Positions 4,916 through 5,689 of a stretch of DNA of 14,300 nt are shown one piece after another. Location: the IMG/VR virus record IMGVR_UViG_2671180490_000011, positions 1 to 14,300 of that record; one strand, written 5' to 3'. How positions within the stretch are numbered: position 1 is the stretch's first letter; each line of letters starts with the position of its first letter. The notes beneath the pieces are model-generated. The model did not search any database. It worked only from the letters and a program-made list of their open reading frames with translations, and was not told the DNA's origin. Origin of the DNA: a virus. Lineage: Duplodnaviria; Heunggongvirae; Uroviricota; Caudoviricetes. The translations under genes were made by a program, and so were the position numbers.

Positions 4916-5689
4916 ATGGATATTACTGAGTTTCCTTCTGGAGTAATTGAACACCTTGGCTGGTATGTATACCGATTGATTGATCCGAGGGACGGAAGCA
5001 CCTTCTATGTAGGGAAAGGCAAAGGTAACCGCGTATTTGCCCATATGCGCGGTGAAGTGGCAGCGACTGATGATGACGAGTTACTGAGCAACAAGCTAAA
5101 GCAAATTAGAGAAATAAGGTTAGCAGGACTTGAGGTTATCCATGTCATCCATCGACACGGAATGACTGATGAAAAGACGGCGTACGAAGTTGAAGCAGCA
5201 CTTATTGATGCCTACCCTGGGTTAACGAATATCATGAATGGTGCTGGCAGCAATGAATTCGGCGCCGCGCATGTCAAAGAGTTGATAGCAACATATCAAC
5301 CCGAAACCATAACATTTCATCATAAAGCATTAATGATTTCCGTTAACAGAAGTGCAAAGGATTCAGAGCTTTATGATGCGGTTCGATTTAGCTGGCGCAT
5401 TAATGTCTCTCGCGCCAGCCAAGCAGAAGTCATTCTTGCTACTGTAAGGGGGATCGTTCGAGGGGTTTTCATTGCTGATAAATGGCTCAAATCAACACGT
5501 GAAAATTTCCCTACGATGAAATACTGGGACGAGGATCCTGACTTTGAGGCAACACAAAGTTCGCGCTATGGTTTTGAAGGTCGAGAAGCCCCACCTGAAA
5601 TAGCAAATCTTTATCTTGGAAAAAAAATACCAGATGAATTAAGAAAAAAAGGAGCTATGTCCCCGGTCCGTTACTCACCTAATTTTTGA
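4916..5689 (+). CDS. GIY-YIG nuclease-domain protein with an uncharacterised ~150-aa C-terminal domain
   Basis: Track ORF 4865..5689 begins at TTG; the first ATG is at 4916 (MDITEF...). The N-terminus carries a GIY-YIG-like signature: [29 protein letters not shown] (VYR ... YVG ... R), then a conserved-type acidic residue in [11 protein letters not shown]. The C-terminal half ([39 protein letters not shown]...) matches nothing I recognise. No obvious SD at 4916, so the start is uncertain. TGA stop at 5687-5689, followed by a strong terminator. Confidence 0.7.

Follow-up and report, generated by a model that had tools for sequence, protein, structure and literature searches.

A gene predicted to encode the PD-T4-3/CMoRE restriction endonuclease in the tail-fibre-end cargo slot of a thrW-integrated lambdoid prophage

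Type IV restriction enzymes such as the PvuRts1I family, GmrSD, McrBC and MspJI couple a modification sensor to a nuclease, operate without a cognate methylase and restrict T-even phages. In each of these respects they are matched by CMoRE, the system originally named PD-T4-3 (this comparison is drawn from the discussion of Liu et al. and from general knowledge). CMoRE differs from those enzymes in that its nuclease is of the GIY-YIG type rather than PD-(D/E)XK or HNH/DUF262-DUF1524, its sensor is a fold without detected relatives rather than an SRA-like one, no NTPase partner is needed and the enzyme is inactive on 5mC. The catalytic fold is held in common with the N-terminal GIY-YIG domain of UvrC, reported to be the closest structural neighbour (PMC12923530), and with nucleases of the LEM-3/ANKLE1 type, from all of which CMoRE is distinguished by an additional tyrosine (Y19), a different biological role and an acidic insertion of 15 residues that overlies the active site.

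The accounts of family function on which we draw are Vassallo 2022 (as cited by Liu 2026), a Cell Host Microbe paper of 2025 and Liu et al., Nat Commun 2026 (PMC12923530), the last of which renamed PD-T4-3 as CMoRE. Functional discovery dates from 2022 and modification dependence from 2025, with the mechanism, cleavage pattern and crystal structures following in January 2026; the family is included in PADLOC and, as used by Liu et al., in DefenseFinder. According to Liu et al. (PMC12923530), PD-T4-3 was first reported from E. coli ECOR68; neither of these two names is printed in the main text of Vassallo 2022. A distribution survey counted 274 systems in 22,803 genomes (PMC12923530).

As a single component, CMoRE confers approximately 5-log protection against T2, T4 and T6 (PMC12923530). 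When supplied with Mg2+ or Mn2+, the purified enzyme breaks down DNA in which 5hmC or glucosyl-5hmC is present and leaves DNA containing C or 5mC alone; it restricts T4(hmC), and T4(C) escapes (PMC12923530). Two modified cytosines are required, the cut pattern being CN11/N9G with 2-nt 3' overhangs, and beyond these two cytosines there is no strict sequence requirement (PMC12923530). A Capnocytophaga homologue of 48% identity behaves in the same way and, at high dose, also cleaves the momylated DNA of Mu (PMC12366544).

[quoted passage not shown] The active site is covered by an acidic loop of 15 residues, a 4A mutant of which loses selectivity, cuts ordinary DNA and is toxic (PMC12923530). The tetramer depends on V92 and L96, and the C-terminal domain, which binds 5hmC, is considered by Liu et al. 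to be a new fold having no sequence or structural relatives (PMC12923530).

The window analysed here, by which we mean the whole 14,300-nt stretch of DNA, contains an open reading frame whose product is, in all likelihood, a member of this family and effectively an allele of PD-T4-3/CMoRE, with its function assigned by homology. The features of the gene and its predicted product are as follows.

4916-5689, plus strand: predicted PD-T4-3/CMoRE coding sequence, from ATG at 4916 to TGA at 5689, 257 amino acids plus stop.
4916-5260, plus strand: predicted N-terminal nuclease domain, with R39, E91/E93 and the putative dimer-interface residues V92 and L96, matched by PF22945; the boundary is approximate and is taken from the published structure description.
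4958-5014, plus strand: GIYxY-YIG motif, amino acids 15-33, read from the translation as G15-W-Y17-V-Y19 ... F-Y31-V-G33.
5069-5080, plus strand: acidic run D52 D53 D54 E55 in the translation, within the putative autoinhibitory loop between helices alpha2 and alpha3.
5294-5686, plus strand: C-terminal modification-sensing domain (5hmC-binding, by homology), from the invariant Y127 to the end.

The family assignment was assessed through profile and structure-database searches. The defence-system check proposed in the first-pass annotation, run with PADLOC, returned a full-length match to PD-T4-3 (PDLC04031; E = 2.4e-140, 464 bits), with residues 1-256 aligned to positions 1-255 of the 256 in the model. 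The PHROG match was to phrog_5356 (E = 2e-143), NCBIfam gave no match for the protein, and a PDB search yielded the O157:H7 structures 9U75/9U8D (E = 3.7e-172) and the APEC O1 structures 9U7U/9U7Z (E = 1.1e-150). CMoRE of O157:H7 (WP_000355475.1; PDB 9U75/9U8D) has the same length as the window protein, 257 amino acids, and 253 of the 257 residues are the same (98.4%). The four differences are T51A, E55D, Q169K and N197H, none of which falls at a reported functional position, and the charge is kept in E55D. For comparison, 38 positions differ from the APEC O1 protein (9U7U), corresponding to 85.2% identity.

Besides its length, the window protein shares with PD-T4-3/CMoRE the two-domain architecture, the GIYxY-YIG motif, the acidic loop, the interface residues, Y127 and occurrence as a single gene on prophages. 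The genomic settings are different, the window copy lying in a thrW-integrated lambdoid prophage beside an alcohol dehydrogenase (ADH)-family gene and a LysR gene and the O157:H7 copy being accompanied by baseplate and pinE genes. The gene is thus one already known in mechanistic and structural detail, and no new kind of system is involved. The first-pass annotation had by implication treated the protein as uncharacterised, a view overturned by the PADLOC match, by the 98.4% identity to PDB 9U75 and by the published mechanism and crystals (PMC12923530); that the protein belongs to an already characterised family, PD-T4-3/CMoRE, is an outcome which that annotation had itself named as counting against its proposal.

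Translation probably begins at the ATG at 4916. An in-frame TTG at 4865 is an alternative start that would lengthen the N-terminus by 17 amino acids and is unsupported; the ATG is favoured because MDI(T/N)EF is the beginning of the family HMM as well as of the crystallised proteins. The product is accordingly of 257 amino acids and not, as first given, 258, the latter figure being the number of codons including the stop. The DNA from 4700 to 5760 is 100% identical to that of E. coli GDSC2BY4G (NZ_CP136025), in which the gene product is annotated by RefSeq as WP_000355484.1, 'LEM-3-like GIY-YIG domain-containing protein'; the same accession is also annotated in an O157:H7 strain.

A two-domain fold as in the crystals, with an N-terminal GIY-YIG domain followed by a C-terminal sensor, is predicted from the sequence. 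Residues 28-110 match the Pfam family LEM-3_GIY-YIG (PF22945) with 54.2 bits, against a cutoff of 27, in agreement with the N-terminal GIY-YIG nuclease signature originally discerned. The match to the classical GIY-YIG family (PF01541) lies below the gathering threshold (13.9 against 22.6 bits); with PF22945 passing, the protein is a member of the superfamily through its divergent branch. For the C-terminal 130 residues (128-257) there is no Pfam match, even with the threshold relaxed to E <= 10, which accords both with the statement of Liu et al. that this domain has no sequence or structural relatives and with its earlier description as a domain to which no name could be given.

Conservation was examined in an alignment of the window protein with 80 homologues (n = 81), translated from a genome scan with one genome per species; the 80 loci kept are 54-86% identical, and E. 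coli itself is absent among them. Their hosts are Enterobacteriaceae as well as members of other phyla, with Planctomycetota, Acidobacteriota, Actinomycetota, Chloroflexota and cyanobacteria among these. The window protein possesses Y17, Y19, Y31, R39, R80, E91, E93, V92, L96 and Y127. Invariant in all 81 sequences are Y17, Y19, Y31, G33, R39, H43, R80, V92, E93, L96 and Y127, with E91 retained in 80. From this invariance, R39 and either E91 or E93 may be numbered as the catalytic Arg and Glu, and the universally kept V92 and L96 are the predicted interface residues for tetramer formation and defence. The acidic run reads DDDE in the window protein and in 9U7U, and DDDD in 9U75; distant homologues have a loop that is shorter by one residue and still acidic.

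By analogy with the published enzymes, the window protein would be a tetramer, assembled as a dimer of dimers, whose C-terminal domain would bind 5-hydroxymethylcytosine or glucosyl-5hmC on incoming phage DNA. A dimer would read two modified cytosines around 21 bp apart, and the N-terminal GIYxY-YIG nuclease, with Mg2+ or Mn2+, would cut between them in the CN11/N9G pattern to leave 2-nt 3' overhangs. The acidic loop (DDDE, residues 52-55) over the active site would exclude unmodified host DNA, and the lysogen and its prophage would be protected against T-even phages directly, in a non-abortive manner. We infer this mechanism for the window protein because of the 98.4% identity to CMoRE and because every tested residue is conserved; no feature of the sequence speaks against it. 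Modification-dependent cleavage and T-even protection by the window allele are predicted on the strength of activity shown for proteins 98.4%, 85% and 48% identical to it.

The surroundings of the gene are those of a prophage end. The relevant features, in order along the window, are as follows.

1785-1830, minus strand: att fragment, the 3'-terminal 46 nt of tRNA-Thr (thrW); the match to another locus (L006) runs 46 nt into the tRNA-Thr annotated there.
2402-3394, minus strand: Zn-dependent ADH-family gene, between the att fragment and the LysR gene.
3544-4446, minus strand: LysR-family regulator, the divergent neighbour, with Pfam HTH_1 and LysR_substrate domains.
4690-4723, plus strand: second, degenerate hairpin copy on the left border of the cassette, with the shared motif GCATACGWCGTGNCTRCGG.
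4718-4915, plus strand: upstream part of the approximately 1.03-kb cassette, presumably containing the native promoter; it accompanies the gene in every context seen.
5709-5756, plus strand: hairpin (5709-5747) and T-run resembling an intrinsic terminator, at the right edge of the cassette between PD-T4-3 and tfa.
5759-6343, minus strand: tfa, tail-fibre assembly gene, the convergent neighbour (Pfam Caudo_TAP, 1.1e-44).

The thrW att fragment marks the prophage end, and ARAGORN finds no intact tRNA in the window. Rightward, the order is att fragment, ADH, LysR, PD-T4-3 cassette, tfa and side tail fibre, and in the matching complete genome lom and J lie beyond the side tail fibre. This layout (ADH-LysR-PD-T4-3-tfa-stf-lom-J) places PD-T4-3 in the equivalent of the lambda b region. 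The first-pass annotation had the gene in just this slot, between the tail-fibre genes and the att fragment, and had described it as monocistronic and closed by a strong terminator; the open reading frame is indeed divergent from the LysR gene and convergent with tfa, and is followed by a stable hairpin with a T-run. Its further suggestion, of a prophage accessory cassette whose position hinted at defence, likewise stands, since what is found is an autonomous b-region cassette encoding PD-T4-3.

The anatomy of the cassette is that of a typical moron. Like the lambdoid morons (those of the lambda b region, and of the P2/P4 hotspots of Vassallo 2022 and others), it is an autonomous promoter-gene-terminator unit positioned beyond the tail-fibre genes; a feature that may set it apart from them is a hairpin of about 35 bp that is present, in one copy each, at its two ends. 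The right-hand hairpin (5709-5747) has a folding energy of -27.3 kcal/mol (z = -5.6), a stability that no sequence in a set of 200 shuffles attains. It was missed by a consensus terminator scan because its stem is bulged and its loop long, and was recovered by folding. The window contains exactly two copies of the 19-nt core, GCATACGWCGTGNCTRCGG (4705-4723 and 5726-5744), where none would be expected by chance, and no hairpin motif is seen at other cassette boundaries in the window beyond these two copies flanking PD-T4-3. When positions 4718-5747 are compared with an unrelated O157:H7 prophage (L004), identity is 98.5%, both flanks differ and the similarity ends at 5747. A single copy of the hairpin directly follows tfa in a related prophage lacking PD-T4-3 (L003), and in other lambdoid prophages a type II restriction-modification cassette is stacked between hairpin copies.

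These arrangements could be read to mean that the hairpin is a dedicated exchange site, where an integron-like mechanism targeted to the hairpin would insert, stack and swap defence cassettes at the tail-fibre end of E. coli prophages. We consider this improbable; alternatively, the hairpin would be a mere terminator providing a small stretch of homology.

The slot carries varied defence cargo, namely type II restriction-modification, Avs2 and PD-T4-3, and is a defence hotspot. In two related prophages (L002 and L005) a type II restriction endonuclease and Dcm adjoin PD-T4-3, with tfa also present in the former, and the prophage lacking PD-T4-3 (L003) carries Avs2. The pair formed by the ADH and LysR genes, found in only three of 5,426 E. 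coli genomes, sits in the position of Avs2; that this pair is itself a defence or counter-defence module is a weaker possibility.

In more distant settings the neighbours change again. The O157:H7 prophage with baseplate genes (L004) has the PD-T4-3 unit beside pinE and AraC; in Citrobacter (L010) the gene is surrounded by serine recombinases together with an ApeA defence gene, and in Klebsiella (L014) it lies near an IS110 element, a DUF4365 protein and a Cu amine oxidase. It occurs on plasmid records as well, and homologues of 39-46% identity are present in jumbo phages. With neighbours that change from each context examined to the next, the gene has no conserved partner and forms a single-component system. 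A tblastn search with Tfa and Stf found neither within 6 kb in the 80 homologue loci (one genome per species, E. coli absent), so that association with tail-fibre genes is, so far, a property of E. coli prophages and not of the family as a whole.

Of the readings that compete with a functional defence gene, the one that survives best holds that the intact PD-T4-3/CMoRE gene is silent or too weakly expressed here, forming a latent cassette that gives little or no native protection. A consensus scan detects no sigma-70 site on the plus strand upstream of PD-T4-3, and the gene is preceded by no obvious Shine-Dalgarno sequence, so that the lack of a consensus promoter and the weak ribosome-binding site both speak for a silent gene. 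By eye, a candidate promoter, TTGTGA-17-TAATAT, can be recognised at about 4855-4883 (8 of 12 positions matching). Experience with relatives points in both directions. With its native promoter the APEC O1 orthologue defends weakly, and robust defence required a T7 promoter, against which the O157:H7 gene affords approximately 5-log protection from its native promoter (both PMC12923530); the 200 bp upstream of the window gene belong to the cassette that is 98.5% identical with that of an O157:H7 strain. Similarly, one phage escaped PD-T4-3 in the clinical isolate NILS69 and did not do so when the gene was expressed from a plasmid in K-12, yet chromosomal deletion of the native gene in NILS69 had a measurable phenotype, rendering the isolate sensitive to Tevenvirinae (both bioRxiv 10.1101/2024.12.20.629700). 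Since the coding sequence is, in addition, undisrupted and around 17% of E. coli genomes (923 of 5,426 complete genomes) retain the same DNA, we regard a silent gene as improbable.

Far less credible is the proposal that the protein is a free-standing GIY-YIG homing endonuclease, similar to I-TevI or Seg, that spreads by cutting the tail-fibre ends of cassette-less prophages. A PHROG 314 'homing endonuclease' match is weak (E = 0.0021), its best stretch being residues 17-149, the nuclease domain included; the label 'putative homing nuclease' borne by full-length homologues in jumbo phages, which would also fit, is an annotation and not a test. The occurrence of a discrete cassette in two different prophage backbones is in keeping with homing, but the protein has no NUMOD, IENR1 or HTH modules, and its Pfam-blank C-terminal domain corresponds to one that binds 5hmC in crystals. 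Moreover, the purified enzyme spares unmodified DNA, host DNA is untouched in vivo, and the site requirement of the enzyme, as noted above, extends to little more than its two modified cytosines. We accord this proposal a negligible probability.

Just as negligible is an abortive-infection or toxin effector, in which infection would free a non-specific nuclease to kill the host cell: the autoinhibitory loop and the toxic action of the 4A mutant on ordinary DNA lend themselves to such a scheme, but defence was judged direct and non-abortive because cultures (of an orthologue) show normal growth at MOI > 1 (PMC12923530). Reads from host DNA stay at the same level as T4 DNA becomes depleted, ordinary DNA is not cut in response to either 5hmC DNA or 5hm-dCTP (both PMC12923530), and there is no antitoxin partner, the neighbours varying between contexts. 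Among the functions first entertained for the gene, that of an anti-phage defence nuclease is thus retained; the homing-endonuclease, abortive-infection and toxin readings are rejected on the published biochemistry, which describes direct, modification-dependent restriction.

With the product most probably a PD-T4-3/CMoRE defence nuclease, the annotation should read PD-T4-3/CMoRE type IV restriction endonuclease, replacing the RefSeq name 'LEM-3-like GIY-YIG domain-containing protein'. The discovery value is small, the family being already characterised, although the positional reasoning by which a nuclease in the b-region slot is a likely defence gene gave the correct call here. Among complete E. 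coli genomes, approximately one in six carries the same DNA. Resistance to T-even phages, whose DNA contains 5hmC or ghmC, is predicted for the lysogen, and this bears on the prediction of host range for phage therapy.

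The PD-T4-3 cassette is bracketed by two copies of a hairpin of about 35 bp, and its immediate surroundings in the prophage comprise the following elements.

Features on either side of the PD-T4-3 cassette (window coordinates)
2402-4446, - strand: gene of the Zn-dependent ADH/quinone-oxidoreductase family with a LysR regulator, between the att fragment and PD-T4-3, inside the prophage
4626-4715: conserved segment, immediately preceding the cassette on its upstream side (827-916 in comparison locus L001)
4690-4723: hairpin copy, first side of the cassette
5712-5747: hairpin copy, second side of the cassette

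A related prophage that lacks the cassette (L003) has a single hairpin copy straight after the tail-fibre assembly gene tfa. In two further related prophages (L002 and L005), a full hairpin copy and, ahead of PD-T4-3, a partial one enclose a type II restriction-modification cassette. Possibly, the hairpin is a recombination hotspot at which cassettes are stacked. RefSeq labels the segment at 4626-4715 an 81-bp fragment of a 'capsid protein' pseudogene. The same genome has a second copy, 84% identical, flanked by ecpE and ykgJ, and the segment may be a small repeated element.

Among 5,426 complete E. coli genomes, just 3 have the ADH and LysR pair, which is probably a metabolic moron; its position is occupied in the related prophage L003 by Avs2. 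The DNA at window positions 73-1784 directly abuts an intact thrW gene in other strains; here it ends in the 3'-terminal 46 nt of thrW only (1785-1830), after which the lambdoid prophage begins. This arrangement implies that two elements were integrated in tandem at thrW. None of the ORFs in window 1-2400 gave a Pfam match.

Within tfa itself, the 3' half of the coding sequence matches the Rfam family IS009 (RF02111), a candidate small RNA of E. coli, over the family's full length at 5802-6000 on the - strand (225.9 bits, compared with a gathering score of 117).

The PD-T4-3 finding falls within a clean block, 1-8505, and the right part of the window beyond it is divided into blocks by ambiguous bases.

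Interruptions and side-tail-fibre (stf) starts in the right part of the window
8506: N
10841-10851: run of N
12199: N
13256-13266: run of N
12134, - strand: ORF start, stf N-terminus
13191, - strand: ORF start, stf N-terminus
14261, - strand: ORF start, stf N-terminus

The same stf N-terminus is begun anew in each block, three times in total, and the ORF at 6343-8553 opens with a Tfa-like N-terminus joined across an N. All this looks less like real biology than like the Ala/Ser-rich repeat region of stf having been stitched together or assembled in alternative ways.

Full-length homologues of PD-T4-3 with 39-46% identity occur in phages (records H63-H79) whose genomes, at about 250-280 kb, are of jumbo size; examples are found in Serratia phage Moabite (6406-7161), Pseudomonas phage OBP (158703-159449) and Klebsiella phage N1M2 (129135-129860). 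No close copy (>60% identity) was present among the phage records of the searched collection, and none of the 23 phage records matching PD-T4-3 belongs to a lambda-like phage. The jumbo-phage homologues are annotated as endonucleases or homing endonucleases, and may act as weapons when a phage with modified DNA infects the same cell.

There are genomes with two paralogues of PD-T4-3, among them a Phycisphaeraceae MAG (CP054186.1, 2.95-2.99 Mb; L028 and L030) and that of Providencia heimbachae (L008 and L009). Across the family, identities of 54-60% over the full length are held between very distant phyla, a degree of sequence conservation which suggests that horizontal transfer has been frequent and that both domains are under strong constraint.
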